A stretch of 64,000 bases of DNA from Promethearchaeota archaeon (GTDB lineage: Archaea > Asgardarchaeota > Lokiarchaeia > Sigyniarchaeales > SOKP01), in the NCBI GenBank assembly GCA_008080765.1, contig SHMU01000001.1:1255-65254 (forward strand), in the 5' to 3' direction. The notes beneath the pieces were generated by a model, which worked only from the letters and a program-made list of their open reading frames with translations, searched no databases and was not told the origin of the DNA. A program made the position numbers and the translations under genes. The first letter of the stretch is position 1, and every line of letters starts with the position of its first letter. This document shows positions 13,256 through 54,874 of the stretch, in pieces.

Positions 13256-13502
13256 TTTTAGGCACTCCCAAAAGTTTTACCCCTACCAAAATACACTTGA
13301 ATGAGACCATGTTTCAAACGTTTTCTTTCATTCATATTTCAAAACCTTCTAACTCAATAATTTGACTAATTTCTTTATAATAATAATTCTTTTAACTTCC
13401 TTTCAAAGAAATCACTAATAAGTTTAGTAAATTATTAATCAAAAAGAAAATTTCTATCAATAAAGAAAGAGTGTGTAGAATTATTTGCGAACGTCTAAAT
13501 TA

Positions 13503-14345: not shown

Positions 14346-14360
14346 AAGGAGGATACAAAT

Positions 14361-15245
14361 ATGAGTGAAGAATATACAACTGATGAAATTATGACTGTAT
14401 TAATTGCGCGGGAGGTTAATAATGATGATATCATGATAGTGGGAGTTTCCACGCCAATGGTATGGGCAGCTTTTACTTTGGCAAAGGTGACCCATGCTCC
14501 AGATGCTATTTATCATTATATAATGGGAAATACGTTTGTGTATGAACCCCGAGAAGTCTCATTATTATATTTGGAAATGAATCTGCATAGAGGGTATAAA
14601 TTTCAAACATCTGCCGAATGTACATTAGAATATTTACCCTCTGATACGCTTACAACTATCGAATTTTTCAGACCCGCGCAAATTGATGAGAATGGAAATA
14701 CAAATAATATTTGTATTGGTGATTGGTATAATCCAAAAGTAAGACTTCCGGGTTGTGCAGGCATTGCAGACTTTTCTATGCTCTATTCTCGTGGACAATT
14801 TTTTTATTGCCCCCGACACGATAAAAGAACATTTGTATCCTCAGATAAGATGGATTTCGTGTCAGGTGTAGGTTTTAAATATGGAGAAAAAAGCGATAGC
14901 GGAGGCTCAGGACCTCAGTGCATGATTACTGATCTTGCATATCTTACATTTGATGATAAAACAAAAAGAATGAAAATTGGGTCAATTCATCCCGGAGTAG
15001 ATCTTGATGAGGTTATTGAGAATACGGGATTTGATCTTGTAATTCCCGAAAATCTGGAAACTACAAAACCCCCTACAAAAAGAGAATTGAAATTATTAAG
15101 AGAAAAGGTAGATCCATTAAATATTCGTAAATTAGAAGTTCTTAGAGGGAAAGAAAAAGAAGAGTTGTTAAATTGTATTATTGAAAAAGAATTAGAAAAA
15201 GAAAACAAATTCCCTAAATTATTGACTTCCACTTATATAATGTAA
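14361..15245 (+). CDS. CoA-transferase subunit B
   Basis: Sits 15 nt after subunit A behind a GGAGG SD. TTDEIMTVLIAREV and GCAGIADF patterns are typical of GctB-like subunits. Confidence 0.75.
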   Translation: MSEEYTTDEIMTVLIAREVNNDDIMIVGVSTPMVWAAFTLAKVTHAPDAIYHYIMGNTFVYEPREVSLLYLEMNLHRGYKFQTSAECTLEYLPSDTLTTIEFFRPAQIDENGNTNNICIGDWYNPKVRLPGCAGIADFSMLYSRGQFFYCPRHDKRTFVSSDKMDFVSGVGFKYGEKSDSGGSGPQCMITDLAYLTFDDKTKRMKIGSIHPGVDLDEVIENTGFDLVIPENLETTKPPTKRELKLLREKVDPLNIRKLEVLRGKEKEELLNCIIEKELEKENKFPKLLTSTYIM

Positions 15246-15257
15246 GGATCTCTTCTT

Positions 15258-16235
15258 TTAAGCGTCTTTTTTCAAAGAAAAATGAACTTTATTAAACATT
15301 TCTTCAAGATTTCTATAAATATCAAATTGATTATCAAGAAGATTGGAAGCGAGATCATCTAACTCCTCATTATTAAATAAGTTTTTAAGAAGAATTGATT
15401 CGATTCTATCAATCATACTTGCTTTAATTTTGTAGATATAGCGCTGGGTTTTTCTTGTTTTGATCAATTCCGAGAGTTCAAGATATTCTTTATGATCCCA
15501 GATCTTCTCGAGTAAGATATCGATCCCTTCGCCGCTTGCGGAGTTAGTCATCACTACGGGTGGTCGCCAACCGCTCTGAGAAGATGTAGCATCATCAAGC
15601 ATCATTTCAATTTGCACCACAAGATCTTCACCCCCTAAATCTTTTTTATTGACATCATAGATGTCTGCCGTTTCAATGATGCCCGCTTTCTGCATTTGGA
15701 TGGCATCTCCCATGTTCGGTGCCAGCATTACCACTACAGTATATGCTAAATTATATATGTCAAATTCTGATTGTCCAACGCCTACAGTTTCAATTAGAAT
15801 AACATCCATTCCATATGCTTCATATAATAAGGATATATCAAAAACTGCTCGTGACACCCCTCCTTTATATCCTCGAGAAGCTAAGCTCCGCATGAACACG
15901 TTAGGATGGATTGTAATCTCCTTCATTCTCACGCGATCCCCTAAAAAAGCACCTCCACTAAAGGGGGAGGAGGGATCTATAGAAATTATCCCTACAGATT
16001 TCCCTTCTTCAATAATTTTTTCAGTAAGCTTTCCTGTGAGAGTACTTTTACCTACTCCCGGAGAACCAGTCACACCAATGATATATGATTCATTGGAAGT
16101 ATTATTTAAATGCGTAAATATTTCTTCTGCTGAATTAGGATTATTTTCGACAAGAGTAATCAACCGAGCTAATGCTATTTTATCTTTTTGTTTAAATCTC
16201 TGACATAAATCTTCTATATTATACTCTTTTTTCAC
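15258..16235 (-). CDS. meaB: MeaB/ArgK methylmalonyl-CoA mutase-associated G-protein chaperone
   Basis: P-loop GVTGSPGVGKSTL, GDRVRM, ETVGVGQSE and NKKD boxes. Confidence 0.9.
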   Translation of the reverse strand: MKKEYNIEDLCQRFKQKDKIALARLITLVENNPNSAEEIFTHLNNTSNESYIIGVTGSPGVGKSTLTGKLTEKIIEEGKSVGIISIDPSSPFSGGAFLGDRVRMKEITIHPNVFMRSLASRGYKGGVSRAVFDISLLYEAYGMDVILIETVGVGQSEFDIYNLAYTVVVMLAPNMGDAIQMQKAGIIETADIYDVNKKDLGGEDLVVQIEMMLDDATSSQSGWRPPVVMTNSASGEGIDILLEKIWDHKEYLELSELIKTRKTQRYIYKIKASMIDRIESILLKNLFNNEELDDLASNLLDNQFDIYRNLEEMFNKVHFSLKKDA

Positions 16236-16358
16236 TAAGAATCAACTGATTAAATGTGTTGAAAAATGTTATATTATCTTATCCTAAGGTAATGTACTCT
16301 TTTATTATTATTTTATGGAAAATTTAATAAAAATAAACAAGATTAAAGAAAAAAAGAC

Positions 16359-16532
16359 TTATTTCTCGATATTGTCTTTGATAAAATTCACTATTTGAGA
16401 AGTCATTGAACCGGGTCCGAATACGTTAGCTACTCCCATTTTTTTTAATTCATCAAAGTCTTTTGCTGGAATAACACCCCCCAATAAAACCATGAACTCC
16501 TCTTTCATATTCTTCTCTTCCAATTTAGCCAT
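16359..16532 (-). pseudogene. truncated paralog of the methylmalonyl-CoA mutase B12-binding small subunit (C-terminal 57 codons only)
   Basis: Hand translation: MAKLEEKNMKEEFMVLLGGVIPAKDFDELKKMGVANVFGPGSMTSQIVNFIKDNIEK*. It aligns without gaps to the C-terminus of ORF 49649..50050 (41/57 aa and about 121/174 nt identical by hand count). The upstream in-frame sequence is unrelated and closed by TAA. Confidence 0.75.
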
Positions 16533-16824
16533 AAATTCCGTATACCCAAATGATAGAAATTATAAAAAAAAGTCTTCACGCTAAAGACCATACTTCAGAA
16601 GTGAATGGATTCAGCTAGGGCCCTATTTTTCGGATATTCCATTCGAGGTCTCAATTGATATATCCCCGCTACGGGACGATAAACTCTTCTTTAAATTCGA
16701 GGTCTTTGATGAGCTGGGCAATTCACGAATATATGATGGTCTGGATCAGTATATAATAAAAGATCTGGATAATCATAACAGTATATATACAATTTCGGGT
16801 ATTTTCGAAAACCAGATCTATGGA

Positions 16825-19800
16825 TTGGATGAAAATAATTATATCGATATAAATCCTCGTATCTTTCCGTTCGATAATGATTTGACGCATATTATCATTA
16901 CCACAGACTATGAGTCCTTCATCTTGGATACCAAATATATCTCCTCTGGAAAAACCTATTTTTCAGATCACGAAAATAATATTAAAATTAATTCCATCTA
17001 TTATGATATTTTCAGCGGCGAATTCACTTCTATCCCTTTAACAGTCTCTCTGTATCAGGGAGATACCTTACTTTCCTCAAATTACTTCACGCTTACCGCT
17101 ACAGGAGTCACTTTCAATGATATTATTATGGTTTCAAACTTGTCCGCAGTTCCCGATACAACTTTCCCAAACAACAATATCTTTATGAGCTTTGACACAG
17201 GTGCTGATTCTTATACGAATGCTCACAATATTCCCTATATAGTAAATTCATTATATCCTACCGTGGAGATAACGAATGAATACGGTGAAGTGATTGATAC
17301 CGTAATTCTCAAACCTAACTCAAACGGTTCACGCATAGAATTGTACTCTTCCATCAATATCGCACATAATTATTTTGAGCTTCCTATGCCTTCCTCTTTA
17401 CTTGCCGGCGAGGAATTATGCGATATTTCTTATATCGAGATTGCCGGTATAGCTTACGATTTTATCTATTATGTCGATGATACTTCTATTATTATAAAGC
17501 TTGCTACGCTTGACGAATTAACGGGTCCTTTCGACGTAAATATTGAATATTCGTATTCAAATAGCTATTTAGACAATAACCAATTTGTTGGATCCTATGA
17601 TTTTCAGAATTTACCGCAGAACTATTACACTTTAACAGGTACTTTTTATGATATTTCGGGGGCAATTTCTGAATTTACAATTCCTACCTTATTATGCGAT
17701 TATCAACCACCTGTTATTTTCCGACAATTCGATGAGTTAATCTCTATTAACCCTAAATATGCCAGTATTTCATTTTATATTCACGATGCCTCTCCAATTG
17801 CGGGTTGGTGGTTTGCTGAACAGGTGGATGGGATATGGACGGAGCAAAATAATACCTACACCTTTACATTTAATGATACCTCCTTTACCGACGGCTTATA
17901 TTCATTTACTTTACGGGCAAATGATACTTTGGGCTATAGTTCTTCTAGCACCTTTTCTGTATATCTGGATTCCGAAACTCCTATTATGACTAATTTCGAA
18001 AACCATTTTGAATACTTTAGCGGGCTGTATCACTGCCAAGTATCCGTAGAGGATGATTCTGCGGTGCGTGTGGTCCTGGATCATGCGATTAATCTGGAAA
18101 CATTAGAACATTATAATATTACCTTTTCTGTTTTTAAACTCGAGGGAGAAAATACATGGGATATCACTTTCGATACGACACAGCTTCCCGATGGTCCCTA
18201 TAATCTTACTCTTGCTATCATTGATGATGCGGGAAATGAGCTGGTTTATGTTATTGCGGATCGTGTCTTTGATAACTCCGCCCCTCAATTACTTGATCTC
18301 TACGATGAGGTATATATCGAGGGAGAGCTCTTATATTCGAGCGATCTTGATGACATCGTATACTTCAATGATCAAAAATACCTCTTCTTAGAGGCGGTCG
18401 ATAACATCTACGGAGAAAATATTACCGTAGAAATGCATTACAGCAGTCCCTTAGAACTCTATAGCATGCAAATCGAGGGTTCATTGGATTATAATATTCT
18501 CTCTTATAAGATCATCGGATACGGTTCTATCTATACCGAAATTTCACAAATTATCGATATCGAACGCTTATATATTGATGGAACGGATGTTGCGTTCACC
18601 ATTGATCGAACGGATGAAGATTTTTATATTGAAATTTCAGAGGATTATCAGTATTTACTTACTTCCGAAAATTCTGAGAGCATAACAGGAGATCTTTATA
18701 TATATCGTGAGAGTATACCCTTGAACTACAACACCTCTAAAGAGCTTTGGGAGCTTACCACCCCTACTCAGAGCTACTTTAACATCTCAGAGCATATGTC
18801 CATTCAATTCGGTGATACTTTCTTATTTTGGTATTCACTCGAGGATGGAGTGGAAAATAGGCTTCTTACCTCACGGTATACGGGTGTCTATGATAATTAT
18901 ATGGGGCTAATAGACCCTGATGCCTCATTTATGCTATTCCCCTTTGCAAATATCGATAATGAGGGAATCCTCATTTTTGGTGCCGATAACGCGCTTTACC
19001 ATACGGTCTTTCTTAATCTCTCGCACATTGTTCCCTCTTCTTCGCAAACACTTGATGTCGCACGTGCCTATCTGTACGGCTCTAATACCGCTGAATTTAG
19101 TACCGTCATGCCTCTAGGACAGGCATATCAATATTATGACGATATTTGGGCGTGCGCTTGGAATATTAATGATTGGGACGAAGGACAGATTCCTTCCGAT
19201 ATCTATTATCTTAAAGTGTTGCTTGTGGACAACGCAGGCAATTATCTATCTCAGATCAATCTTACTCATATATTTAATTACGAGCATATTGAACTCATTT
19301 CGGATGTGGTGTTCGGAGATATTTTCGAGTTCGATGCCAATTCTCCGTTCAATGTATATGAACTTACGGGTGCTATTAATACCGCCAATAACACGGAATT
19401 AATGAGCGTGATCTGCTCCTATTATTCTGCTACTCAAAATCAATGGATCCCCATACAAACTACTTCCTCCGAGCTTACGGTCGCCGGAGAGTATAGCACC
19501 TTTAATATTACATGGGATATGAATTACGATTATTCATTTTTAAACACCTTATACACTCAATCGTATGCTTATCTTCCCATGCGAATTGTGAATCCGTTTG
19601 AGATTGATACGGTATGGGGTTCTTGGGGAGTCTTTACCGATGCTTCATATACCGAATCTCAACCCATCTTATTAATCAATAATTCTGGGGCTCTGGATAT
19701 TCAGATCTTTACCTTTGATCCCGCTTCAGGATGGCTCCTTAATACCACCTTAAGTACGGTCATCGATTCAATTAGCTATTCGGAATCCGACTCGTATAGG

Positions 19801-22800
19801 GTATTTGATATTAATCATGACGGAATTAGCGAAATTATTCGATTAACACCTTCTTCTCTCGATCTAATGTATTATAACCACTCATCGGGATGGACCATTC
19901 AAGAAAATGTCACTAATACCGCTCCTACTGATATCTTACTTACTTATGATCTTTTCTATGATGAGTCGTTGGGAACAACATCTTGTATTGTTGCCTATGA
20001 ACATGACTCTGAATATTATTTAGCACGATATCAGATTAATGCTACCATAGATGAGCAAATAATAATTGATACTACTTATGTGAGTTCTTACGAATGTGAA
20101 AAAATGCCTACTTCAGTGGCTTTTGTAGAGAACTTTAATTATGCCTCGGGAATTGAAATAATTGTTTCCAAATTGGATACGGGCACTTATCATTCAGAGG
20201 TCTTAAAATTTAATTACGATCTTAGTTCTTCTGAACCTTTATATCAAAATATTTTGGGCAGAATTATTCTTATTGAACATCATCTCATCGACGGCTATCA
20301 TACCCTGTTTTTGGGAACGGATCGATATAGAATCGGGAAACGGGATACCGTCTTCGCGCTCAAATATGATTTTGCTATGAATGCATATGTGCGCTATGAG
20401 ATCACCGAGATTGATGCGACGCAATTGGAACTTATCGATATTATGGCTATGAAAACCGAGACGCTTGACAGCCTTATCATGGCGACCGATTCGGGACTCT
20501 TTGAAACCATTATTGACTATACCACCGATACAGACACAATTTATGATCCATGCTCCTTTAATACCGAAATCTTTTCGAAAACTCAATTAAATATAATGGG
20601 ACCTGCATTAAACCCGATCATCGATGTAGAATTTTCACCTATTTCCGATATTATTAGTATATCCTATGACTTGGATAATGGCTACGGCTGGCAACCGCTT
20701 GGTTCAGAATATTATTATTATTCGCCCTATTCCATTAAATTGTTGTTATCGGCATTATGGAATGAATTAGAACGCGTAAAAATAGTTTATAATTATCGTA
20801 CGGGAGTTGCCGAGGAGACTCAAGTCTTTGATCCCTCCTTTACCGTTCATGAGGGTTTCTCGGATAGTACGGACATCTCTGCGTCCAGTGTATTTATTCA
20901 TGATTATCCTTCAGAGTTAGTATGGTTAAATCCGACCACGGGATATTCCGATGAAAACGCGGAATGGATTACCCTTGAAACTGAATGGTACGATAGAGGC
21001 TTAAATTATCGCATGCAACCGGTACGCGGCGAGTTTGAATGGCTGACAGAGTCTCAATATCCCCGGGTACGACCTGAAGTGTATCAGACGGCAACTCTTC
21101 CGTTAGATGCGTCCGATGAGGCTAATATTTCCGAGATTGTTCCTGCCATCGGAGAGATTATCGCCGTCTACGGACTCACTTATTCTGCTGATCAAACTCT
21201 TGAAAGTAATACCCTTCAAAAATATCCTGTATTTCAATGGGATATAATTGAAAGTGGACAGGTCATTTCCTTAGAACGCTGTCCAAAAAAATCCTTATTT
21301 GAAAATATTACCATTAATTATCTTCCATCAGTGAATCTTTATCCTGTGGGTGATGAATACTATTTCGATAATTTTACCCATAATGGAATTGAGTATACCA
21401 ATCCTTATTATATGAGCAATTTACAGGATGATTTGACCGACTATGGAACCTATATTCATCCCGAGCAAGATCTCGCTTATGAATTAGTACGAGATGCGTT
21501 CGGTATTCACGTGAATTTTACCGATGAGGGCGACCCAATCGGAATTCCTTACGGGGCTATGAGTTATGCGACAGTAGACGATACTCCTCAATCCGCAATT
21601 GGTATTACCGATTACTTACTCTATCAATACGAGATAATGGATGAAGCTACCCCCCTACTGGGAGGGACCCTTAATATCTCCATGAATGCCGGATTTAACG
21701 ACATCTATTATGCCGAACTCAGTCAAATGGCTTTAGATTATTACAACATTACCATTACTTTATTTACACTTGATGAAAATGGACAGAGAACCTTCATTCA
21801 TTCAATAGAACAGGAAATTGATCATTCAACACTCGGCTTCTCTTCGAAAGATTTCATCATTCATATTAATGAACATACTTTTACCACTCAACAATTAAGC
21901 TTAATAAAAGAGGCTCTCACCAGAAATAGCGGGAATAACCTCTTAGTAGAGGTGACGACTGAGCTAGATAATGTACGCGTGAATGCGCCTTCCTTTAAAG
22001 GGCATTTTGCCCAAGAAATACTTTCTGCCAGTTTTGAGGCGGAAACATTATCTACCAACATGCAGTATAACGGCTATACCCCGCAAAATACATATCTTGA
22101 AATCCCGCATTCCAATGTTCGACTTACCCGAATCAATACCTCCACCTATGAATTTAGCGATGATGTCTTAAAATACGATTTTAAATTTGTTATTAATCAT
22201 CTGTACGGCTACGATTTAGAAATCTCTCCCGATGATTATATATTCGATGCTAGTACCAATAAAATTACTCTTACACACGAATGGACGGACTTTTACGGGA
22301 TTATTACAGCTAATATCACCTATTTAGCATTCCCGTGGGACTATAATTATATCTCCACCTTAGAACCTATGACCTTTTCGTTTACAGGAGACTTCATTGA
22401 AAACGCCACCCAATTCTTGGAAATTGAAGTGGAGTATGCTCCCGACGGGATTCCCGCCTACCAGTTTCGGGATTTTGACACACAGGGCAGATTAACACTT
22501 TATGATGAAAGCCGTTCTGCAAATATGCTTGAAATATACTTGTATAATTACCGCACGGAAATGTGGGAGAGAAAGGAGTGTGTGGTCTATTCCGATTATA
22601 CAGGCGAGATGGGAAATCGGAAGCCTACTTATTCCTACATTTTCGATAGAAACTTCATTCGATTTGAAGACTACTTCAATGAATATTCTTCACAATATGA
22701 ATTACAAGCTTTATTTATTGTAAATCAGGAAGCGAAATCTTCCTATTATTCAGAATTTTCGATGGATATTGTCAATATTACTCCTCGCCTATATTCTCAT

Positions 22801-35946: not shown

Positions 35947-35997
35947 GAGGAACGCTCTGTAATTCAGTTTACGGAAAATGGCAATAACCCCGATAGC

Positions 35998-44900: not shown

Positions 44901-47900
44901 CACAGGAACCGGAAGCGCTATTGCAGAAGTAGGGGCCGAGGTAGGAAAGGAAGGCGTAAAGATCATTGCCAAGGAAGTCTTGAAACAAGTTCTTAAGGTT
45001 GTCTTAAAGACTATCTATGAAGCAATGAAGGAGGTACTTCAAGAAGTTATTCTTGATGCTTTCATAGAAGCATTAGCTGAAGGCTATTTCGTGGAGATCT
45101 TAGGCATGAGCGAGGATGCGGGCTTCTGGATCTCTTCGCTTGCAACATCCCTTCGAGAAGCGGGCTTAGGACCGTTCAAACTAATGCGTAAAGGACTTAC
45201 TTCGGTAATGTCATCTATCAGCACTAATTTAGATCTGCATTTAAATCTAGACAGTATTTTCTTTAAGAACTCTAAAAATCATATTAAGGACTTACAGAAT
45301 AGCCTTAAGAATGCAGTGGAAGCAGATAACTTCATTGACCAAGCTAAGCTTAAGGAAGAGATTCGACAAGCTGAGACGGAGCTCGCCCTTAAGCAGAATA
45401 AACTGAATTTGATTAAGAATATATTCAAAGGAATTATCATGCTCTCCTTAAGTTTCAAATTCTTCGGATTTGGATTTATAGGAGCTAAAAGTCTATTAGA
45501 TATTGGGACTTCAATCTCCTCTTATTACGATAATAAGGCTGAAATTAATACGATTTCTCATGTTATGAGGTCTGAAAACCTCCAGTTTGCCTATGAAAGC
45601 TCCATAACTAATTTAAAAAGAGGGTTGTCTCAAGACATCTATGATCAATATGCGAATACGAAACCTCATGATCTCAGGCAACTTGAAAACAAGATAGAAC
45701 TCTCATATGCACAACAACAAAGCAACGATTTCAAGACTATTGACAGCTGTTTTGACCCAAACCGCGTTGAGAAAATAAGTCCACCTAAAACTCCGGACAA
45801 TATTGATCTCCGAACCGCGAAAGAAGCGAACGCGATGACCCCCATAGAAAAATACGTCGATAGTTTCTTTTTTAAGGACCTTCTCAACACATTCCCCGAA
45901 TTAGAAGCATTACGCCCACGTTTTGAATCTATCGTAGAATGGGTTTCAAAGATTTATAACTTAGACTTTTTAGAGAAAGCAAGACAGAATCAAGAAGCTT
46001 CAGAGAAAAAACAAGCAACCGAAAGTAATGAAAATACAATAATCGTAGCCAATTTCATCTCTAAGGAAACAACGCCTTCAGAATATAGATCGGCTGCTTA
46101 TACTTTCAGGTTATCTGGCGCCCCTCATGATTTAGCAATAAGAGAGATTCAGTTAGATCCCACTCTTACCATTGAGGAAATTAAGACAAAAGTGAGAGAA
46201 GAATACAATCTTGAGTTTACAGAAATTCACCTTCTTTTTAATGGCAAATACTTACCAAATCATCTTAGATTTTCCGAACTTGGAATTAATCCTCAAATGG
46301 ATGTAATCACGGTAATGGCCACGCAAGAAGCAGCTGGAAGAAATGTTGCGGCGAAAATATTTGCAAATAAAATAAAAGATTTGATTTCTAATAATGAAAT
46401 CAATAAAGAGGTTGCAAATAGATTAGTAGCAATATTAAATAACGATAAAAACAATTGGAATTTTGAAAAAGAAACTCTTGATAAATTCCCCAAGCTAAAA
46501 GATTTAGCAGAGGAGATAGCTCGAAAAGTAGCGGATGGAGAAAGCCCACAATTTAGTCCAGAACCAATATGTATAGGGCCACTTCTCAGCGTTGACGAAT
46601 CAACATATCGTCGTTGGCTAGATTCTAGTACGTTTTTGTCTTTACAAACATTTGAAACCATAGAATATATTATTGACACCTTTTATAGTGGCACTACATT
46701 CGGGAATCAAATGAATGAACTATTACAAGATTATGAAATGAGGAATTTGTTAATGCATGGTTCACGCCTTTTTGCCTCTAGTTCTAGTATTTCCAGCATT
46801 TTAATTATGGAGTTGGAACGACTTATCACTTATAAAAACGAGAAAACGGGTACCGATTATGAAATGATTATTATTTCTCATTTAAAAAGCGCCTCAGAAC
46901 ATAAAGAATTTTTAAGCGAATATGTTATTGAAAACTTATATGGAATAGAACAATTTAAAAGAAGTAATGATGGTCGTCTACAGCGATATGTTATGGCGTA
47001 TCTTTTGGGTGTCTCTCAAGCGTCTATAACTAGATGGATGTACGGGGAATTTGATATTTCTCAAAGTTCTTTTATAACTTTTGATAATAGAATTCAAGAG
47101 TTATTTGGAAACTTAATCGAGAACGAAGGCTCGTTATATAATTTTTATTTAGAATTTAAAAATCTTATCGGTAATACACCTCAAGATCGATGTTCAAAAA
47201 CCGTTCGTGATCAACTATTACATTATTTAAAAGAGGGTGAGAAAAAGTACGGACCTTTTAGTAATTTTAGGGCTGATAAAGCGACTAGAGCCGAGATTTC
47301 AGAGAAAAATATAGAACTTTTCGGATATGCAAAGTTATTTAGTGTTGATGCCCTCATAAATAGTGCTTTAAAAGATTTATTGCAGAATAAAGACTTTTTA
47401 GACAATGAAGTCTCTGATGCTTTGGAAAAAGGGTTTCCAGGAGAGGGCAGAAAACAATTGGAGGGCTTAAAATGTTTTATAGAAGAAGATATTGAGAGAG
47501 CGGTAAAGACATTCAGATATTTATTATTCGGTCTTGCAGATACTTCTCTACAAAAGATTATGACTGGGGCAGAAAAATGCCACCTTAAAGTTCATTGTAC
47601 CTTAGAAAAGTTTCTTAGAATGGTTTATGAGAGCATGCAATACTCTAGTGATTTTCAAGTTATTGATAGTGGTCCATCTATGATACTTATGCCTACTACA
47701 TGTATCCAAACAAGATTAGATAAAGACGGAAATGTAATATTGGATAAAAATGGAGTTCCCATGATATGCGGTGAGAAAGGTTTTTATTTAGCTAAAGATC
47801 TTATAAGTGGAAGAGCTGTTTGCTATAAGCATATTATGCGCTGGAACGAGCAAATAACTGCTGCCTTTTTCACTTATTATACTGGAATAGAGTTAAGTAA

Positions 47901-48612
47901 ACCTCAAATAGAAGTATACGCATCTACTTTAAATTTTGGCGAAATATTCGCCCATATTTCAAATTGTAGATATGACATACTAGTAAGCAAAGAGACGGGT
48001 ATAAAATTAACTGCGGGTGATATTGCCAAGGGGTTATCAAGATTGGGTATTATTAATAATGAACCTCAATGGTTAATAAATATATATGAGAATGAAATTG
48101 GTATTAATATTGAAACGGATGGTGAACAACATGATAATTTTTGGGTATGGTTAAGACTTCAACGATTAGAGGGTGCTGACTTAGCTGATCAAATTGACGT
48201 GATATTGGAGACTCTCGACCCGATGGGTATTAAAATCGGAGATAAGCTTCAAGAATTAACACTCTCTCAAATACAGTCCTACATCAATATGGTTCAAGAA
48301 GATGCAAAACGATTTTTACTGGAGGAATATCGTAGGTGGGAACACTATCGTGATAATGATCAAGATAAACAAAATGCAATTGAAGAAAAGGCTCATTGGT
48401 ATCAAATGAGGATCCCAATATACGGTTGGTTTGAAAATGTCGACAATCGATTTTTCTTATTCTCTATGCAATTTTTAGAAATTCTTGCTAAGGAAGCCGG
48501 AAAAATCGAGGAAGGAGGAAGTCTTAACACTGAATTATTGGAGGAATTAGGATTTAATTGGGATCATTCGGCACATTTTGGACGATATAAAGAGTTTTTC
48601 CTTGATTTATAA
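35998..48612 (+). CDS. giant ORF 2 (4204 aa as called); same frame as ORF 1, probably its continuation
   Basis: Positions 35998 and 16825 are both 1 mod 3. Only TAG (35944..35946) plus 17 sense codons separate the two ORFs. No SD upstream of the ATG. Contains DxDxDG motifs, a TM cluster and a tail with Ubl, HTH and nuclease-like motifs. Confidence 0.8.
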   Translation: MTEFTVYYLLEFDFSGHHYGIVEFGNTSMLNETSIQFELPFGFLPNISDSRAPLYTQFSEQFSPDGDTYRLHYGLYGSNDPDSIIIYNLDQLEEQFKSEIDVLFSDETNEEYYEIDVVFTTPPNEPFTLSYGLKSEYSLGAGFQKIGEPYSESTRLIYTEEEAGQSKIFTDTTNILSPYSFSESALYISLDKQDNKETTLTIFDVPLLYSPSINLTFIIDELGKTMIDQYTSLENILTIDFTYMDSNELYEFSSPSLELQLTPSQLSSYEQGNSYIITYEQDLQALYEILGMDNIDISITISQEGDVNNLPYLLMTQYGYLTDEYIIETHDSMPLDENGEPDYAAITTTPHFYQITSQDLTEAPFNLLSDSQITVALTNLSETELVSLNSDNGKIDFISHGTKKTFTLSEQQGNAVPNLALFINCYDIDMPQYQDGYLDLYYGSGTEVEGEKRSTSTISMTAIGTWLNYRAKVEDNVILGWDSTYDFTDKFLTTDRITVSGKVFYHALANLSESSDEYLNKIQMKEIFDSYTREIEFGIPLPEQYDIADIRAVGHPYEYHLSIQGFPVESTDEYMQYLEADDHDNFPEDEFNQPTNRLPDIDLETGKLNYEVAIDENDSAYLLFFVPLTTIYDLGLLDGNGDIMIDFHAHQTFRDGQDYYIKENYEIDGNNYIEWDYTLVSGHPFKFHPDFNENHYFTVEYSALEWSIMKQMYIHYKTDSFVYQPETFQNVSLFYPGDASIETFGVRNTIPEDQLLDGHILFPSVYVLTETDENSDEYEVRQLKNTAIDSKLVYKTPDPSEPWNYTIDFEQIAIALAAQYPGEHLVNPSFLSVEAHYYSDQWRYELSSTPFNYEYLEKDSNYHLKLTIKNPDGIIIDERYSNETEEIGLNYHTQGFDTYVQAISSNYIYFKEGVIDKNSTIEISYHYKLQPGLQERKHFLISTTPYTQAFNTEYLPGASNSSSAIYRERYRKLSGGSIIAPFDYMLSINETYSLYLSYRLNQRDYFQHEYTTSEGDLTGLEGYRKFGLLDRNLRDTGLVRFAKGAEKECVKVYFYNYRTDLDSTFTSKKYPYIGLSEEQQMQPVYGTTPKIAFLDPSLYEVDSQMVAVSIKQEALELIERMNPKDDKFYISFVPQPLDLELLAYKFQYLTSGDILDSLDVLHWDVPEKDDLDVYPNLDAYYYKDKELSSIERVVCHASELSIYLEDGHSLEFDVEAELQAYDPELLSKIHEGKYASIFIKTNIENLESLESLQIQLIDKDGNILNDYTQIISTEEIDLNDFELHINLPSYADNKLKIIKFIPIFRTDDIYSLENKVGISQYDLIKWDEEDVITNETYPFMFFTLETNLQINASHAGREFAYLFNNRLERIYFPEGVSIEYTKIFDDDGNLLQYALKIPKEHIDPLTGENATFSNEDLLFLKYYSPVERAISLGIGKIYFERAFENNEKSEFMMVNAENQNYFSQFAENNFGSENYWYEQELQITPFDTEHTGTFKTAKLDINLSALEDDAIDGKVPFSHILFTVPHPLYELTINEILILNPSQTHTTEHGSTSSRLWQYSEIQAFAAGSDPAYDEYKFNFTQSVPLFYNESDPAQEWLNYIRIFDEDQNYYSVGLFGDQYQLHYDQENKSFSWNPTFNQYPVYYGMQFEEELMIDPNHTLYIEYCSNESWKEPIVIEDENVDLTSIWTIYDFIHTLRPQYYNWFIDELGYEDNEYSLMDDIDYNVTQYLTEQFTVYDNITEYTHQFDIGNYSFTEDYLNLSLSHVVAITPDFEQILLSDNENYTITFNAEGKNITIESLHPYSYLNEFDTISVVLNFSRGPINSFTELYLTEDFFTSQLNYSDDLTSTFYDTINIYYETFSQGFDGEILFMESSSIITSEDTLFTPISYSSFNAITDQRWVLMNYYSGNFDNFKLYYDDSSIFYQADIDQDGKIDFKHTLDIDRDGKMDIIRYGEESNNGEIIWYTIIQAYERIDSEETHEMEDKKETKWFDINDKNFANYEFNIAELFGVCLTGGLLLPYTLASMMMPIMDYYAMKTLQEEVIRDETIESTYYSIKTDYDRDGLPDYQMDYESYKNVVQYEVTEHHKTLIAAKYQDVFMFLTVWVAKNIASLANEPVYDFVFNDFLTEYHLDHWDFRGLPPTTLAQLPFILSTYRKYYWDMTSEYTDSFTYEQIKIIEYDDQGEISESRIYKDDFRNDEIGNVAQFLSNLIEEHRVTNVETGEQLSISFNPNLPFSRPEDIDWECEVWGVDGVPIKFDSLTVLGGDGLEVIDETNVYQQEIIIRIPNRYSLYNDFRKTAIWQVANMGFADFKVEGILVTPQDGKVYITSDMICLAWGVGKVPGKYFYVDSTGNGFYDTVYIVAATPTDTSGTPTYKVLAIGYNYDGIHDFKPYEKIYPKSRIESNFWMMAIQTNRFDVHWTYQYGNLIREPLLWPTLESLIWNYFKPADHIFEIWKSTALDWNGKSLLYHYIETTKYYEAWFQYGTQYYEDFFEQTFMGTVSSALSVFTQISVQISFGILNVFGAAAIERIANAAGSAIFILTYTLMTKFFMDIDRHEVMSKQRAYTYYPSKYIFKFDPQSMNEKCLYDKLLGDSMATALLGHYGAYYTTAVGESEGFQVTAEVMVTPPNYARMMTGWQGFFEFLGMNLIAPGSHPAIYYGLTFDQMNLDWYALTSELPLYTSPFLLFLNSMLFGPYYMYRQNTLGAVETITMLRTLNHLNTIQATSIGGDPRYRLVNRYEAPYNRILPEKGLYSPVVLSPEWNQYAGNIKGMMYIWALCHDFPSTVGLGSENTLTEVEKLKYKAKFIINPNGFEYPIESIQISLMQQNKRGGIFASSENLISNIQVQEEDFEVIDGTIYFTKTLDEIVAEQYKGYEELLAGIDPEQYLLHYGINIIFSLTIPDTNNETHKLALAQATQFAVMDYFNQYVQAQTIAQIKSEIAYTETLTFWSTIMTTALSYFGGWGATGTGSAIAEVGAEVGKEGVKIIAKEVLKQVLKVVLKTIYEAMKEVLQEVILDAFIEALAEGYFVEILGMSEDAGFWISSLATSLREAGLGPFKLMRKGLTSVMSSISTNLDLHLNLDSIFFKNSKNHIKDLQNSLKNAVEADNFIDQAKLKEEIRQAETELALKQNKLNLIKNIFKGIIMLSLSFKFFGFGFIGAKSLLDIGTSISSYYDNKAEINTISHVMRSENLQFAYESSITNLKRGLSQDIYDQYANTKPHDLRQLENKIELSYAQQQSNDFKTIDSCFDPNRVEKISPPKTPDNIDLRTAKEANAMTPIEKYVDSFFFKDLLNTFPELEALRPRFESIVEWVSKIYNLDFLEKARQNQEASEKKQATESNENTIIVANFISKETTPSEYRSAAYTFRLSGAPHDLAIREIQLDPTLTIEEIKTKVREEYNLEFTEIHLLFNGKYLPNHLRFSELGINPQMDVITVMATQEAAGRNVAAKIFANKIKDLISNNEINKEVANRLVAILNNDKNNWNFEKETLDKFPKLKDLAEEIARKVADGESPQFSPEPICIGPLLSVDESTYRRWLDSSTFLSLQTFETIEYIIDTFYSGTTFGNQMNELLQDYEMRNLLMHGSRLFASSSSISSILIMELERLITYKNEKTGTDYEMIIISHLKSASEHKEFLSEYVIENLYGIEQFKRSNDGRLQRYVMAYLLGVSQASITRWMYGEFDISQSSFITFDNRIQELFGNLIENEGSLYNFYLEFKNLIGNTPQDRCSKTVRDQLLHYLKEGEKKYGPFSNFRADKATRAEISEKNIELFGYAKLFSVDALINSALKDLLQNKDFLDNEVSDALEKGFPGEGRKQLEGLKCFIEEDIERAVKTFRYLLFGLADTSLQKIMTGAEKCHLKVHCTLEKFLRMVYESMQYSSDFQVIDSGPSMILMPTTCIQTRLDKDGNVILDKNGVPMICGEKGFYLAKDLISGRAVCYKHIMRWNEQITAAFFTYYTGIELSKPQIEVYASTLNFGEIFAHISNCRYDILVSKETGIKLTAGDIAKGLSRLGIINNEPQWLINIYENEIGINIETDGEQHDNFWVWLRLQRLEGADLADQIDVILETLDPMGIKIGDKLQELTLSQIQSYINMVQEDAKRFLLEEYRRWEHYRDNDQDKQNAIEEKAHWYQMRIPIYGWFENVDNRFFLFSMQFLEILAKEAGKIEEGGSLNTELLEELGFNWDHSAHFGRYKEFFLDL
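41773..41860 (+). other. paired DxDxDG calcium-binding-type motifs (FG-GAP/EF-hand-like)
   Basis: ADIDQDGKIDFKHTLDIDRDGKMDIIRYG. Related single motifs: DYDRDGLPDY (42172..42201), YVDSTGNGFYDTVY (43039..43080), and in ORF 1 VFDINHDGISEIIRL (19801..19845). Confidence 0.5.
42004..45500 (+). other. membrane-spanning region of the giant protein (about 5-6 hydrophobic helices separated by large loops)
   Basis: Hydrophobic stretches at 42004..42090 (FNIAELFGVCLTGGLLLPYTLASMMMPIM), 43489..43656 (two helices), 44842..44910 and 45430..45500. A weaker one lies near 42289..42340. An amphipathic/coiled-coil segment spans 44920..45425. Confidence 0.55.
46099..46320 (+). other. ubiquitin-like (beta-grasp) domain embedded in the tail
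   Basis: LDPTLTIEEIKTKVREEYNLEFTEIHLLFNGKYLPNHLRFSELGINPQMDVITVM aligns without gaps to ubiquitin [55 protein letters not shown]. About 15 of 55 positions are identical by eye. No C-terminal GG. Confidence 0.55.
46981..47070 (+). other. XRE/Cro-type helix-turn-helix-like motif
   Basis: QRYVMAYLLGVSQASITRWMYGEFDIS matches the l-gvSq-sIsrwe-G pattern. A weaker similar segment (SVDESTYRRWLDSS) lies at about 46590..46630. Confidence 0.45.
47960..48430 (+). other. PD-(D/E)XK (Vsr/DUF559-like) nuclease-like motifs at the C-terminal end
   Basis: CRYDILVSKETG ... IGINIETDGEQHDNF ... HYRDNDQDKQNAIEEKAHWYQMRIPIYGW resembles the y-fDf-v ... iaiEyDGeqH ... rD--K ------ gi-lirIpy layout, with long insertions. 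Confidence 0.35.
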
Positions 48613-48640
48613 CGGATATAATATCTAATTAATTAATTGG

Positions 48641-48647
48641 TTTTTTT
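48641..48647 (+). terminator. oligo-T tract (T7) 29 nt after the giant ORF stop
   Basis: GGTTTTTTTAATTTT. Archaeal RNA polymerase terminates at oligo-T tracts. Confidence 0.3.
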
Positions 48648-48722
48648 AATTTTATTATATCTATTTCCATTAAAGATAATTATATATATTCAGATTTCTT
48701 TTTTTTATATTAGGACAAGGAA

Positions 48723-49247
48723 ATGTATAAAAAATATTTGTATTGTTTTTTTAACAACATTTTAGAGTTTGATAAGGCTCTCTCGGCTGTGACTAGTTAT
48801 CGCTTCCTAATATTCCAAAGTTATTTCCTCTTATTAAAGTCGATTCAATGCAATGATACAACCATAACCGCCACGCCAGAGCAGCCTCTATTTGGATTCT
48901 GCGTCTCCATCAGTAAATCCTTTCCCGAAAAACGCTCCCCAGAGGAGGTGGACAAGGATGTTGAAAAGGTTTGCAATTGGGAGTTTTTTACCGACAAATC
49001 GAGAGGGAATTTCATCTGCACAATGGAAGCGATAGAGAATTATTTCGCTTCTAAATACCCATATCCCAGCCCTTTAAAACAAGATTTTGCAAATTATTTT
49101 GATACCGCCAGCAAAGTAATAAAATACGCCTATGAAAAGGGCATTTTTACTATGGACTCTATTCCCGACGACTTTAAATCTGCTATTAAGGCTGCCATTA
49201 AACTGGGTTCTTTTCCTGTTATTGATATGGACAAGCTTGCTACATAA
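48723..49247 (+). CDS. hypothetical protein, 174 aa (orphan directly downstream of the giant ORF)
   Basis: ORF track only; no recognisable motif. The true start may be internal. Last gene of the inserted block. Confidence 0.4.
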   Translation: MYKKYLYCFFNNILEFDKALSAVTSYRFLIFQSYFLLLKSIQCNDTTITATPEQPLFGFCVSISKSFPEKRSPEEVDKDVEKVCNWEFFTDKSRGNFICTMEAIENYFASKYPYPSPLKQDFANYFDTASKVIKYAYEKGIFTMDSIPDDFKSAIKAAIKLGSFPVIDMDKLAT

Positions 49248-49648
49248 GATTATTTTTTATTGGTCATTTTTTCTCAAATTAAATATACTAATTTAAATGC
49301 ATTAGTGTCGGGAGAGTTAAGATTTTTTATGACACCATATTATTCCAATCATCTCAATTTTTATTTAGTTTTCATTCATCAATAAATAATTTATGCAAAT
49401 TTAAGAACAGATCTTAACCATACATAGATATAATTAGATAATACCTTTATTTTGTTCTTTTACTATACAGCAGTATTTCAATAATTCTACAATTTATCTT
49501 CATTTAAATTCTCTCAACGCATATCTATCATAACCTTAAGAAAGAATAAGAGATCCAAATAATAAAAAGGTTTTAGATTATATGCAATAAAAATTAGAAA
49601 AAATAAAAAAAATACAATCAAGACCTAAAGTCGTTCTTTCTAAGAGAA

Positions 49649-50050
49649 TTACTTTTTTAGATTATTTTGTATAAAGTCAATGATTTGGGAAGTCATAGTG
49701 CCGGGACCGTAGACGTTTGCCACACCCATAGCCTTTAGTTCTTTAAAATCCTGGGCTGGAATGACTCCTCCTATCAATACCATAAACTCATCTTTTACCC
49801 CCTTTTCCTCTAATTTATCCATGAGCTTTTTAACCCAATTTTTATGCGCGCCCGAATGTATACTAAGTCCTATAATATCCACATCTTCATGAATAGCAGT
49901 TTCCACTATTTGGTCAATATTTTGAAATCCACCAAAAATTAATTCCATACCAGCATCACGTAATGCTCTTGAGACCACTATACCTCCTCGCCAATGACCA
50001 TCTATACCGGGTTTTGACATCAATACCCTAATTTTCTTTTCTTGTTGCAT
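49649..50050 (-). CDS. methylmalonyl-CoA mutase small subunit (B12-binding domain)
   Basis: KIRVLMSKPGIDGHWRGG (DxHxxG B12-binding motif), IIGLSIHSGAH and VLIGGVIP. Start taken at MQQEKK (50050), 17 nt after the large-subunit stop. Confidence 0.9.
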   Translation of the reverse strand: MQQEKKIRVLMSKPGIDGHWRGGIVVSRALRDAGMELIFGGFQNIDQIVETAIHEDVDIIGLSIHSGAHKNWVKKLMDKLEEKGVKDEFMVLIGGVIPAQDFKELKAMGVANVYGPGTMTSQIIDFIQNNLKK

Positions 50051-50067
50051 ATCTCTCACCTGAAATC

Positions 50068-51729
50068 TTAAATTGCTAAAGGTGGCTCCCAAATTCCATA
50101 AATTTCTCTATAAATATCGCATATCTCTCCGACTGTTGCACCTTCTTTGGTAGCCTCCATCATTACAGGCATAACATTCTCCTCTTTTTCAAGGACTTTT
50201 CGGAGTTTATCAAAGATCGACTCTAATTTGGCATTATCACGTTTTTTCTTCAGCGTTTTGATTCGCTCCACTTCAATCTTCATCGCTTCCTCATTTGTGC
50301 GAAATACATCAGTCACATCATCGTATGGAACAGGATATTTATTAACCCCAATACTTATCTCCTCTCCTTTTTCCATTCGTCTCTGGCGTTTATGAAAAGC
50401 ATCTCGCATTTCTTTATATAACCACCCAGTTGAAAGTGCTTTGTCTATCGAACCAGTTCTTTCGATTTCCTCAATATAATCCCATACACGCTCTTCGATC
50501 TCATCAGTAAGCCATTCTACATAATAGGAACCTGCTAAGGGATCTACAGTGTTTACTATACGCGTCTCATCAGAGATCACTTGCTGTGTGCGAAGGGCAA
50601 TTAAAGCAGCCTCCTTTGAGGGAAGACATATTGCTTCATCATAGGAATTTGTATGTAAAGATTGACATCCTCCTAATGTGGCTTCTAATGCTTGGATCGT
50701 AGTCCTGATAATATTTATTTTGGGTAATTGTGCAGTTAAAGAACTTCCGGCGGTTTGTACATGAAATCTAAATTGCATGGAGCGGGGATCTTGAGCATCG
50801 TAGCGATCTTTCATTAATTTCGCCCATATCCTTCTTGCCGCTCTATATTTTGCGATCTCTTCAAAAAAATCCTTATGTGCAGATAAATGAAAAGCTAGTC
50901 GATTTACAAAATCATCTACCGTCCAGCCCCTGGCGATTATATTCTCAATATGAGAACAAGCACTTGCAAAGACAAAACCTAATTCTTGAACGGCATCTAT
51001 TCCTCCTTCCCGATAATTATATCCAGTAAAATTTATAGGATGCCATTTAGGAACATTACCCATAGGTACTGTCCATTCAATAAAATCGCATGCCAATCGA
51101 AGCAAATGATTTGGAGGTACATTTTTATAGGGAATATATCCCACCGTCATGGTCAAAATATCATTTTGAGTGGTTCCCATTAAATTTCGAATGTCATAGC
51201 CTTTCATTTTTGCCATATTGAAATACATCGAGCATACGGGAGCTGAAGTAAAGGGTTCTACAACGAGCGCAACACTGATTTTGTCAATAGGGATATCTTT
51301 GGTAAGCGCAAACATGCTATCTATACAGTATAAGGGCACTCCAGATGTCCCAACTTCTGCTGCACCATCCTCATTTGTAGGGTCAATTCCATTAAAGGTT
51401 AGTGCATCAACCGCTGCGCTAAAACCTGTCTCTCCATGTTTATATAAAAACTTCCATCGCTCATTCGTTTCTTCGGGAGTACCATGTCCCGAAAATAAAC
51501 GCATCGTCCATACACGCCCTCTATACATGTTGGGATAAGGTCCTCGAGTATATGGAGGCTGTCCTGGAAATCCTACCTTTTCTGTATATTCTCCCTTCAC
51601 ATCTAAAGGGGTATATAAACGTTTCACGGGGATTCCAGAATCGGTTTTAAACTCAATATCTCGCTCGCGAGCCTTTTCAAATTTCTTTTCCCAATTTTCT
51701 CGTTCTCTCTTAATTTTCTCAACGTCCAT
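50068..51729 (-). CDS. methylmalonyl-CoA mutase large (catalytic) subunit
   Basis: FPGQPPYTRGPYPNMYRGRVWTMRLFSGHG, FSAAVDALT, HVQTAGSSLTAQ and NIIRTTIQALEATLGG are canonical MCM blocks. Start at MDVEKIK (51729). Confidence 0.9.
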   Translation of the reverse strand: MDVEKIKRERENWEKKFEKARERDIEFKTDSGIPVKRLYTPLDVKGEYTEKVGFPGQPPYTRGPYPNMYRGRVWTMRLFSGHGTPEETNERWKFLYKHGETGFSAAVDALTFNGIDPTNEDGAAEVGTSGVPLYCIDSMFALTKDIPIDKISVALVVEPFTSAPVCSMYFNMAKMKGYDIRNLMGTTQNDILTMTVGYIPYKNVPPNHLLRLACDFIEWTVPMGNVPKWHPINFTGYNYREGGIDAVQELGFVFASACSHIENIIARGWTVDDFVNRLAFHLSAHKDFFEEIAKYRAARRIWAKLMKDRYDAQDPRSMQFRFHVQTAGSSLTAQLPKINIIRTTIQALEATLGGCQSLHTNSYDEAICLPSKEAALIALRTQQVISDETRIVNTVDPLAGSYYVEWLTDEIEERVWDYIEEIERTGSIDKALSTGWLYKEMRDAFHKRQRRMEKGEEISIGVNKYPVPYDDVTDVFRTNEEAMKIEVERIKTLKKKRDNAKLESIFDKLRKVLEKEENVMPVMMEATKEGATVGEICDIYREIYGIWEPPLAI

Positions 51730-52558
51730 TTTTAACACGATTTCTAGAAATAAAATCTTTATTTCCAATTATAATTAAAACATATAATACTTTATGATTG
51801 TAAAAAGGTATAATTGCTTTTCTATTTTTATATAATAATAAGTGATAGATGCACCTCAATTTATATAGTAGATAATCATTAGAGCAATTCATAGATATAA
51901 ATATTCGAAAAAACAAAATCATTTCGAGTGTGTTTTTAAAATATTATCTCTATTAATGTGATTAATCATTATTTGAAACATATACAAAATCAATGAAATT
52001 GATTTTACAAGGAGTAATCTCTGCTGATATTAATGCTATTCAAAAGGGTATTGAAAATGTTCTATTTTCTTCAAAATTGAATAGAATAAACTGGTAAAAT
52101 CATTTAGCGGAACCAGAAATTATTATAAAATTAAAGGAAATACATAATGATTCTATAGATTGTATGTTGTTCTATCTTTCAATAATTTATTGCGATATTT
52201 TTGCTACTTTCGATTCGACATTTATAAATGAAATTAAGGGAAATAGTGAAATCTTAGCATGGATTAAATATGTAAACCCAAACTTACGTCTATGGATGAA
52301 TGATCTAAAAGATAAGAAAATTGTAAGTGTGGAATAAAAATTAGAGATCTCATATCATTTTCCCATCTCTAAAGAGATTATAGAGAATAATATTGATTAA
52401 AACAATTATAGAAAACGGGAATAATGAGGCAGAGAAATTAAAACTTATATTTTTTATTCATTTATGCATTTTAAAATCAGATATTTATATTATTGAGAAT
52501 TATCTGTATAAGAAAGAATTAAGTAATTTTATAATAATTATAACAAAAGGATTTTCAT

Positions 52559-53707: not shown

Positions 53708-53804
53708 TTATATCACTCTCATTTTTCAAAAATTTTAATATAGAGTAATGAATTTTACATCATAATTAGATAATTTGTATTCTTATTGATAAAGTCTCTT
53801 GAAA

Positions 53805-54869: not shown

Positions 54870-54874
54870 AAGAA

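Follow-up and report, generated by a model that had tools for sequence, protein, structure and literature searches.

A 33-kb giant-gene block within the methylmalonyl-CoA mutase locus of a Lokiarchaeon, bordered by two diverged tails of mcmS

The mutase locus and its interruption

This work describes an interrupted methylmalonyl-coenzyme A (CoA) mutase locus in a 64,000-nucleotide (nt) stretch of archaeal DNA, referred to here as the window (contig SHMU01000001.1 of assembly GCA_008080765.1, positions 1,255-65,254, forward strand). The contig is the longest scaffold of Baja_Loki1, a metagenome-assembled genome (MAG) of a Lokiarchaeon from a Baja California salt lagoon (PMC6737245); that publication makes no mention of the locus of mcmS and the giant gene considered here. 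On the minus strand, the order is mcmL, an intact mcmS, about 33 kb of other DNA (the block), a 57-codon mcmS tail, and meaB. The native mcmL gene (50068..51768, minus strand, with a probable ATG start at 51729) encodes the large, catalytic subunit of the mutase (PF01642, E value of 8e-168); mcmS (49649..50092, minus strand) encodes the B12-binding small subunit (PF02310); and meaB (15258..16235, minus strand), also native, encodes the mutase-associated G-protein chaperone (PF03308, E value of 1e-80). All three genes thus lie on one strand, interrupted by the block. A model-made reading of the letters and open reading frames (ORFs), the first-pass annotation, had described this layout of mcmL-mcmS, cargo, and remnant mcmS-meaB, and it is borne out by the ORF listing together with Pfam searches.

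For comparison, the loci of relatives were picked as those with the closest MeaB homologues, and their contigs were fetched. By MeaB identity to the window, the relatives compared are L090 (80%), L002 (77%), L003-L005 and L091 (71%), L092, L093, and L094 (66-70%), and L006 (62%). A profile scan of genome contigs with the MeaB alignment gave, among the matches listed, almost exclusively bacterial sequences and one useful locus, L006; a metagenome scan for the closest MeaB subclade gave one contig, which starts inside meaB; and an exact look-up of the window mcmS product returned no record. In 8 of 8 related Asgard loci, mcmL, mcmS, and meaB are uninterrupted. Across these eight loci we found no second mcmS copy, no block, and no separate small gene ahead of meaB, mcmS and meaB being adjacent in every relative. 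The earlier proposal that the mcm genes and meaB normally form one unit, into which the block was inserted, is upheld by this comparison, and the remnant has no counterpart as a small gene of its own.

Collinearity with L002 extends over window positions 4707..63130, the block excepted. The shared flank holds acyl-CoA dehydrogenase and electron transfer flavoprotein (ETF) genes on one side and, on the other, two CoA-transferase genes followed by genes for cob(I)alamin adenosyltransferase, MaoC, TauE, and thiolase. A single blastn high-scoring segment pair (HSP) with L002 covers mcmL and mcmS (window 51831..49647, 76.9% identity), and one HSP covers the remnant, the spacer, and meaB (window 16526..13402). 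The last 170 nt of the L002 mcmS gene (L002 9667..9836) align to both tail copies of the window.

The two tails are clearly diverged. The 57-codon ORF (16359..16532, minus strand) matches mcmS residues 91-147 at 41 of 57 amino acids (E value of 2e-30). It belongs to a slightly longer remnant, copy B (16359..16552, minus strand), which comprises codons 83-147 and the stop codon, while copy A (49649..49831, minus strand) comprises codons 88-147 and the stop codon and completes the working gene. The copies are 72% identical in amino acids and 69.5% identical in nucleotides (121 of 174), and the longest identical run is 8 nt; the counts reported in the first-pass annotation were reproduced exactly. 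Differences between the copies at codon positions 1, 2, and 3 number 14, 4, and 35, respectively. Nonsynonymous divergence (dN) between the intact tail and the remnant is 0.177, and synonymous divergence (dS) is saturated in every comparison. Between the remnant and L090, there are 15 differences, 0 of which fall at the 21 invariant columns (P = 0.00025). Because the invariant columns are spared and the changes are biased to third positions, the divergence of the tails predates the insertion; the remnant diverged while it belonged to a functional gene, with little decay since. On these sequence comparisons, the mcmS tails are best read as old copies shaped by selection and not as recent duplicates, in keeping with the earlier view that they are not a fresh target-site duplication. 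The 57-amino-acid product of the remnant is annotated as "Methylmalonyl-CoA mutase" in the public record; it is encoded by a gene fragment without the B12-binding motif.

An assembly artefact is very unlikely as the source of the block. Both block junctions were recovered in independent Logan assemblies of run SRR10018917: contig L001 equals window 7341..26235 at 100% identity, and contig L095 spans the 3' end of giant ORF 2, the orphan ORF174, mcmS, and mcmL. The independent assemblies cover both junctions; the in-frame TAG of the giant gene described below lies outside that coverage. That two genomes were fused through the mcmS repeat might be suspected from the fact that the source is a MAG contig in which repeats flank the block, but at 69.5% identity and with identical runs of at most 8 nt, the repeats cannot mislead an assembler. 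With both junctions also present in independent contigs from the same run, we regard the prospect of a chimera as negligible.

In a neighbour-joining tree of MeaB, the window groups with its two closest relatives as (window,(L090,L002)), with L003, L091, and L006 outside. Since the window is nested among its relatives, an ancestral block would require at least three precise, independent losses and is disfavoured, whereas one gain on the window branch is the parsimonious account of these sequences. The possibility, raised in the first-pass annotation, that the giant gene is ancestral at this position therefore finds no counterpart among the eight relatives. A related history is duplication of mcmS in situ followed by divergence, such that the remnant is a resident paralogue. 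The direct, same-orientation arrangement of the repeats and the host-like composition of the block would suit either history. Neither accounts readily for eight relatives with no second copy and no block, and in-situ duplication is further opposed by the tails themselves, which are not mutual closest relatives by dN (0.177 between them, versus 0.073 and 0.138 to L090). We consider both histories, duplication in place and loss of an ancestral giant gene from all relatives, very improbable.

As for the donor, both tails carry an MTSQI motif specific to the (window, L090, L002) clade, which makes the donor a close Loki relative. Host-like block composition agrees with such a donor: GC content is 0.37 in both block and host, third-position GC content (GC3) is 0.33 versus 0.30, and relative synonymous codon usage (RSCU) correlates at r values of 0.88-0.92. 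The comparison of block and flanks suggested earlier gave, by GC, GC3, and RSCU, no sign of a distant donor; tetranucleotide distance is confounded by the unusual amino acid composition of the giant protein.

Joints within mcmS and the origin of the two tails

The native 5' part of mcmS extends to His83 (49844..50092, minus strand; PF02310), the CAT codon of which lies at 49846..49844. This part includes the DxHxxG B12-binding motif, and its protein is near-identical to that of the eight relatives up to ...SIHSGAH. It is followed by a 12-nt in-frame patch, AAAAATTGGGTT (49832..49843, minus strand; encoding KNWV), in which 2 of 12 nt match the orthologous positions. At codons 83-87, 8 of 8 relatives have H[FLM][AS]YT and the intact gene of the window has HKNWV; the sequence on either side of the patch aligns well to the orthologues. 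We propose this patch as the left joint.

At the other end of the block, homology of the remnant runs about 20 nt upstream of its ATG, to a His83 CAT codon at 16552..16550. The upstream sequence, CAT TT- GGG TAT ACG GAA, reads HFGYTE once a 1-nt deletion is restored. In all, the first ~20 nt of the remnant have sustained a 1-nt and a 3-nt deletion, leaving one codon fewer than in the orthologues (frame-corrected HFGYTEF-). The 57-codon remnant of the first-pass annotation is therefore present as an ORF, but the homologous segment is longer and carries small deletions. We regard the extension to His83 as real on account of its register next to the established alignment, which is an argument and not a computed statistic. 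Upstream of 16552, similarity to the orthologues vanishes.

Both homology breaks thus coincide at codon 83/84, and we therefore place the recombination joint inside mcmS at this codon, rather than between genes as had been supposed. The inserted DNA is defined here as 16553..49843 (33,291 bp), with the right joint proposed at 16552/16553. The last 32 nt of the insert (16553..16584) consist of an A/T-rich stretch (ATAGAAATTATAAAAAAAAG...), TATA-like on both strands, and the TAA bounding the giant frame on its upstream side. The joint sequences share only CAT and an offset TTGGGT. A search for repeats at the borders, as suggested earlier, recovered the mcmS repeat and otherwise gave only A/T-rich chance matches.

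Between the remnant and meaB lies the native mcmS-meaB spacer (16236..16358, minus strand), with an oligo-T run after the stop codon; it is L090-like (alignment score of 28 versus a null maximum of 21) and includes an 18-nt segment, CATAAAATAATAATAAAA (16300..16317, minus strand), that is identical in L090 and L002 and is a candidate meaB promoter. Downstream of the intact copy, L002 homology stops 2 nt past the stop codon, and the adjoining 401 nt (49248..49648) are non-coding insert DNA holding no ORF with a family match. The first ~110 nt of this stretch bear a weak resemblance to the L003 spacer between mcmS and meaB (anchored score of 26 versus a maximum of 19 under the null; p~0.003, uncorrected for the 9 tests), a likeness that is only suggestive of a repeat continuing beyond the stop codon of the intact copy.

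Because the patch coincides with the 5' limit of the fragment and the remnant is continuous with the native spacer, we lean toward the view that codons 84-147 of the working gene arrived with the insert, the remnant being the native tail that was displaced. The first-pass annotation had taken the remnant for a foreign or paralogous copy, whereas the junction evidence favours the opposite assignment. According to the displaced-tail reading, approximately 33.3 kb from another member of the same Loki clade would have inserted in mcmS between codons 83 and 84 after the Baja_Loki1 lineage split from its closest sampled relatives. The incoming end would have borne an mcmS tail of its own, comprising a 12-nt in-frame linker and codons 88-147, that completed the resident gene and so kept the mutase small subunit intact. 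Host codons 83-147 would have been displaced by 33 kb, leaving a start-less, frameshifted stub ahead of the unchanged spacer and meaB, which presumably keeps its own expression via the conserved promoter-like segment of the spacer; an independent meaB promoter is thus part of the proposal. The resulting order would be native 5' part, surrogate tail, cargo, displaced native tail, and native downstream DNA. The mcmS tail of the empty site should then equal the remnant sequence (…HFGYTE…MAKLEEKNMKEEF…), with the empty site reading ...TTCGGGCGCGCAT|TTTGGGTATACGGAATTTATGGCTAAATTGG... and the circular or donor joint reading ...TTATAATTTCTATCAT|AAAAATTGGGTTAAAAAGCTCATGG....

Geometrically, this order would correspond to the outcome of Campbell-type integration, in which a circular molecule enters the 3' part of a gene by a single crossover, and from this order we infer a circular intermediate. 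A recombinase may have acted in trans or been lost; alternatively, recombination may have been homology guided or illegitimate. In a template-switch variant, the native template would have been left at codon 83/84 and re-entered at the same point. The scars at the joints and the absence of a recombinase fit a homology-guided, imprecise event at least as well as classical site-specific integration.

Several observations weigh against the displaced-tail reading. The unanchored local-alignment test of the remnant extension is significant only against L091 (12 of 14 nt, p=0.006; p~0.24 for L090 and L003). The intact tail is the nearer of the two to both closest relatives by dN (0.073 versus 0.138 for the remnant to L090; 0.114 versus 0.156 to L002), which, taken alone, would favour a foreign remnant, although the gap amounts to ~1-1.5 standard errors over 57 codons with saturated dS. 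There is no identical crossover core, and the block contains neither an integrase nor an excisionase, nor room for one. The giant frame is open to 31 nt from the right joint without a start codon; the incoming fragment could have been an arbitrary one, or a later deletion could have shaped this joint. In addition, homologues of the giant gene occur in two other genomes without flanking gene-fragment repeats, and the arrangement described here is a single instance. Phylogeny of the tails, one of the comparisons envisaged earlier, places both copies in the same clade; its four-point sums are nearly equal (57 codons, saturated dS), so that it yields no native or foreign call.

A rival reading is the reverse assignment, in which the intact mcmS gene is wholly native, the insertion took place just after its stop codon, and KNWV is an unrelated, lineage-specific change. 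A foreign fragment of 57-65 codons would then have ridden the far end of the insert, for instance through imprecise excision from a previous host. Consistent with this, over its C-terminal 57 residues, the intact copy has 84% identity to L090 and 77% to L002, near the expectation from the MeaB tree for a native gene, versus 74% to each for the remnant; F38, S42, K52, and I55 of the remnant recur in more distant lineages; and L002 homology to the intact copy ends 2 nt past the stop codon, where the crossover would lie. In an empty-site allele, mcmS would read ...SGAHKNWVKKLMDKLEEKGV... on to the spacer, and the site would be ...GCGCATAAAAATTGGGTT...AAAAAGTAA directly before the L090-like spacer (GTCTTTTTTTCTTTAATC...). 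However, a four-residue change in a motif conserved in 8 of 8 relatives would have to fall exactly where homology of the remnant starts, a coincidence of ~3-5% by position alone. A useless, 5'-truncated fragment on the donor would also have to have been captured very recently, as it shows 0 changes at invariant positions, and nothing functional would require an insert that landed after a stop codon to bring a copy of a gene tail. We therefore judge the reverse assignment less likely, though it is the alternative to be taken most seriously.

The open frame at the right joint also invites a two-step history, in which a prior integration or duplication gave rise to a longer, perhaps full-length, second mcmS copy. 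A subsequent deletion would have taken away codons 1-82 of that copy and the 5' part of the giant gene, and so produced the right joint as it now stands. The giant frame is indeed open for 80 codons above its first possible start and closes 31 nt from the joint, as if truncated, and the gene has another recent lesion in its in-frame TAG. Such a deletion leaves unexplained why the intact copy is patched at the same codon, and it requires an extra event; moreover, a TATA-like A/T stretch lies in the 32 nt that separate the joint from the frame, such that the 5' end of the giant gene may be complete. We find this sequence of events quite improbable.

The cargo and its surroundings

The bulk of the block is occupied by two plus-strand ORFs. 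Giant ORF 1 (16825..35946) encodes 6373 amino acids from a TTG at 16825 in a frame that is open from 16585, and giant ORF 2 (35998..48612) encodes 4204 amino acids. They are separated by an in-frame TAG (35944..35946, plus strand), after which 17 sense codons lead to the ATG at 35998. In a word-seeded search of 5.8 billion proteins, only 6 homologues of giant ORF 2 were found (P0123-P0128, 2688-5494 amino acids), all Loki-type and including Loki's Castle sediment; all six cross the TAG point within one ORF. Since the two ORFs share a frame and the homologues are continuous there, the window holds one gene of ~10,600 codons, recently interrupted. The "giant frame" of the first-pass annotation is accurate as to the shared frame but is divided in two by the single TAG. 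This codon could be a nonsense mutation of recent date, mark a split gene, or be read through. Reading of the TAG as pyrrolysine was considered and found unlikely, TAG being the terminator of three ordinary flanking genes. At its 5' end, the frame is open and protein-like for 80 codons (16585..16824) above the first ATG, GTG, or TTG, up to a TAA at 16582..16584, 31 nt from the joint; the gene is either 5' truncated or possessed of an unusual start.

Giant ORF 1 encodes two ConA-like lectin domains (PF13385, E values of 2e-18 and 2e-13), with marginal matches to Ig-like (Big_13) and CBM96 families. In giant ORF 2, a hydrophobicity scan identified hydrophobic segments at about amino acids 2005-3160, followed by a ubiquitin-family domain at amino acids 3384-3443 (46147..46326; PF00240, 29.9 bits versus a cut-off of 25.4), presumably located in the cytoplasmic tail of the giant protein. 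These domains make a role at the surface or in adhesion plausible; the giant protein has no evident signal peptide. The earlier term "envelope cargo" is accordingly plausible in view of the lectin, Ig-like, and hydrophobic features.

The C-terminal module of giant ORF 2 (47500..48609 region) comprises helix-turn-helix (HTH)-like segments and then a conserved part, and it is common to the shorter proteins P0129 (876 amino acids) and P0130 (355 amino acids). Its invariant motif, YD..V...IGIN.E.DG.QH (E.DG.QH at 48112..48132), is one that we take to be reminiscent of Vsr/DUF559-type nucleases; profile searches of Pfam and the PDB lent this no support, returning only ubiquitin-like and weak HTH matches for the module. 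AlphaFold2 predictions from single sequences of the C-terminal 729 and 305 amino acids were unusable (predicted local distance difference test [pLDDT] scores of 38 and 36) and likewise gave no support for a nuclease-like fold, which is thus suspected from the motif only.

Downstream of the giant gene, the orphan ORF174 (48723..49247, plus strand; 174 amino acids) has no Pfam match even at an E value of ≤5 and is unlike the small ORFs that follow the giant homologues. Outside the giant frames, the block contains only 272-292 nt at one end and ~1 kb at the other, and its non-coding ends hold only short frames. Pfam searches for recombinases and transposases gave no match in ORF174, the giant ORFs, or the C terminus of giant ORF 2, even at E values of ≤5. 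ARAGORN detected no tRNA and Rfam no family in the 64-kb window. The search for terminal repeats gave only the mcmS repeat and A/T-rich chance matches, and that for terminal inverted repeats only A/T-rich 12- to 30-mers of 72-92% complementarity. Hallmarks of insertion sequences or transposons are likewise missing, with no transposase, no terminal inverted repeats, and a duplication at the joints of at most the 3-nt CAT. The first-pass annotation had reported no integrase, transposase, tRNA, or long terminal repeat, and the Pfam, ARAGORN, Rfam, and repeat searches were all in agreement. Among viral contigs, we found no relative of the giant C terminus, ORF174, or mcmS, no exact match to the surrogate joint sequence, and no Loki-type mcmS tail.

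Giant homologues in two other genomes (contigs L086 and L088) have unrelated gene neighbourhoods, in which neither an mcmS fragment nor a flanking gene-fragment repeat is present. The giant-gene family behaves as a patchy accessory gene. In L086, an IS630-like transposase (HTH and DDE_3 ORFs, 7574..8628) precedes P0123, and a 115-amino-acid ORF resembling the C-terminal half of a nitroreductase follows it (23849..24196), which would be signs of a rearranged, variable neighbourhood. L088 contains a dispersed repeat of 100-270 nt and 83-92% identity in four copies (512..619, 2503..2797, 22811..23077, and 26456..26556); two of these bracket 20 kb with ABC-transporter genes and the giant gene, which is not specifically framed by them. 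One could go further and imagine giant-gene cassettes of this family as self-contained, integrase-free mobile units that pass between Lokiarchaeia, land in conserved housekeeping genes, and mend them with a built-in surrogate tail, the C-terminal module of the giant protein perhaps targeting or cleaving the DNA. Such cassettes would be a novel type of archaeal mobile element, distinct from aloposons, but we hold this generalization to be a long shot.

The surroundings of the mcm genes show further irregularities. In L092, another Lokiarchaeon, a 73-amino-acid ORF resembling a Cas12f/TnpB fragment (3542..3763) lies between mcmS and meaB, so that the same gap was struck by a different insertion in another lineage. 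L003-L005 have an ORF for a LAGLIDADG-type endonuclease between the ETF and acyl-CoA dehydrogenase genes (L003 4849..6267), as well as a 503-amino-acid ORF with TLP1_add_C and faint Thiolase_C_1 matches between the two CoA-transferase genes (L003 12068..13579). The otherwise conserved mcm neighbourhood thus takes insertions at several points. In the window, two ORFs of 589 and 575 amino acids (54875..56644 and 57010..58737) both align to a single 585-amino-acid gene of L002 (L002 3438..5195), with no Pfam family seen in relatives; the gene has been duplicated in tandem on the window lineage only. A 102-nt direct repeat of 75% identity (10400..10501 and 56699..56799), possibly a dispersed intergenic repeat, is intergenic at both positions, one on each side of the block and far from its borders.

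Significance and comparison with known elements

Very little is known of how Asgard archaea acquire large accessory genes, and the described non-viral integrated elements of Asgard archaea are only the aloposons and a handful in Atabeyarchaeia (PMC8813620, PMC11529989). The locus described here offers exact borders, an ancestral state inferred from eight relatives, and a close-relative donor, and it documents the transfer of a gene of ~32 kb within Lokiarchaeia into a conserved metabolic unit that was not destroyed. It also serves as a warning for annotation, given that what is listed as a 57-amino-acid "methylmalonyl-CoA mutase" is encoded by a gene fragment and that the two "giant proteins" represent a single interrupted gene.

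Aloposons of Heimdallarchaeum carry tandem genes for proteins of 3000-6000 amino acids, are integrated at a tRNA gene that lies downstream of these, and contain a conserved upstream set of four genes, one of them for a MinD/ParA ATPase (Wu et al. 2022; PMC8813620). Like an aloposon, the block is an Asgard insert made up mostly of adjacent ORFs of thousands of codons, and its ORFs of 6373 and 4204 amino acids resemble the "Otus/Ephialtes" pair (PMC8813620). Unlike an aloposon, it has a protein-coding target, with no tRNA in the window, and it lacks accessory genes: the four upstream genes, ParA/MinD included, are absent and have no space, with 32 nt from the joint to the open frame and 272 nt to the first start codon. 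Furthermore, the pair of ORFs derives from a single ancestral gene that a TAG has split, the homology search with giant ORF 2 gave only Loki-type proteins, and terminal inverted repeats do not rise above A/T-rich chance matches. We accordingly give very little credence to the block being an aloposon or another described Asgard element with a transposase or integrase.

A closer likeness in geometry is found in prophage e14 (and phage 21) at the icd gene. In the Escherichia coli K-12 record, e14 starts 165 nt before the icd stop codon, and a 165-nt icdC pseudogene follows the prophage; the icd and icdC copies are identical at 153 of 165 nt (92.7%), beginning with an 11-nt identical core. As with the block in the displaced-tail reading, the insert starts inside the 3' part of a conserved metabolic gene, a replacement tail keeps that gene intact, and the displaced tail is a short distal pseudogene in direct orientation. 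The duplicated tails are also of similar size (165 nt versus 174-195 nt), and the copies differ mostly by synonymous-type changes. The differences are no less clear. e14 encodes an integrase and an excisionase, and the block encodes neither; copies of 92.7% identity with an 11-nt core are set against copies of 69.5% identity with no core; and only the block has scars at both joints, namely, the 12-nt patch and the 1-nt and 3-nt deletions. In addition, the block resides in an Asgard archaeon and carries one giant gene where e14 carries a phage genome, and the native copy is annotated for e14 and only inferred for the block. In all, the block has the e14/icd geometry and lacks the element-borne recombinase and the identical core. 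Were the e14-like reading true, mcmS would be the attachment site, and "bring your own gene tail" integration would occur also in the archaeal lineage closest to eukaryotes. Were no recombinase ever found, the locus would be a case study of recombinase-independent acquisition of a giant gene.

Homology-facilitated illegitimate recombination, or template switching, provides a third point of comparison. Such events resemble the block in having one joint in register with a homologous anchor (here, the mcmS tail) and the other without homology, as well as small indels or filler at the joints, and they require no recombinase. Insertions of this type usually replace or delete recipient DNA, and the anchor is not left duplicated, whereas the recipient copy at the present locus was kept complete from the break point. 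In view of these three comparisons, we classify the block as a giant-gene island that lacks a recombinase and that, in a Lokiarchaeon, entered a conserved metabolic gene and repaired it.

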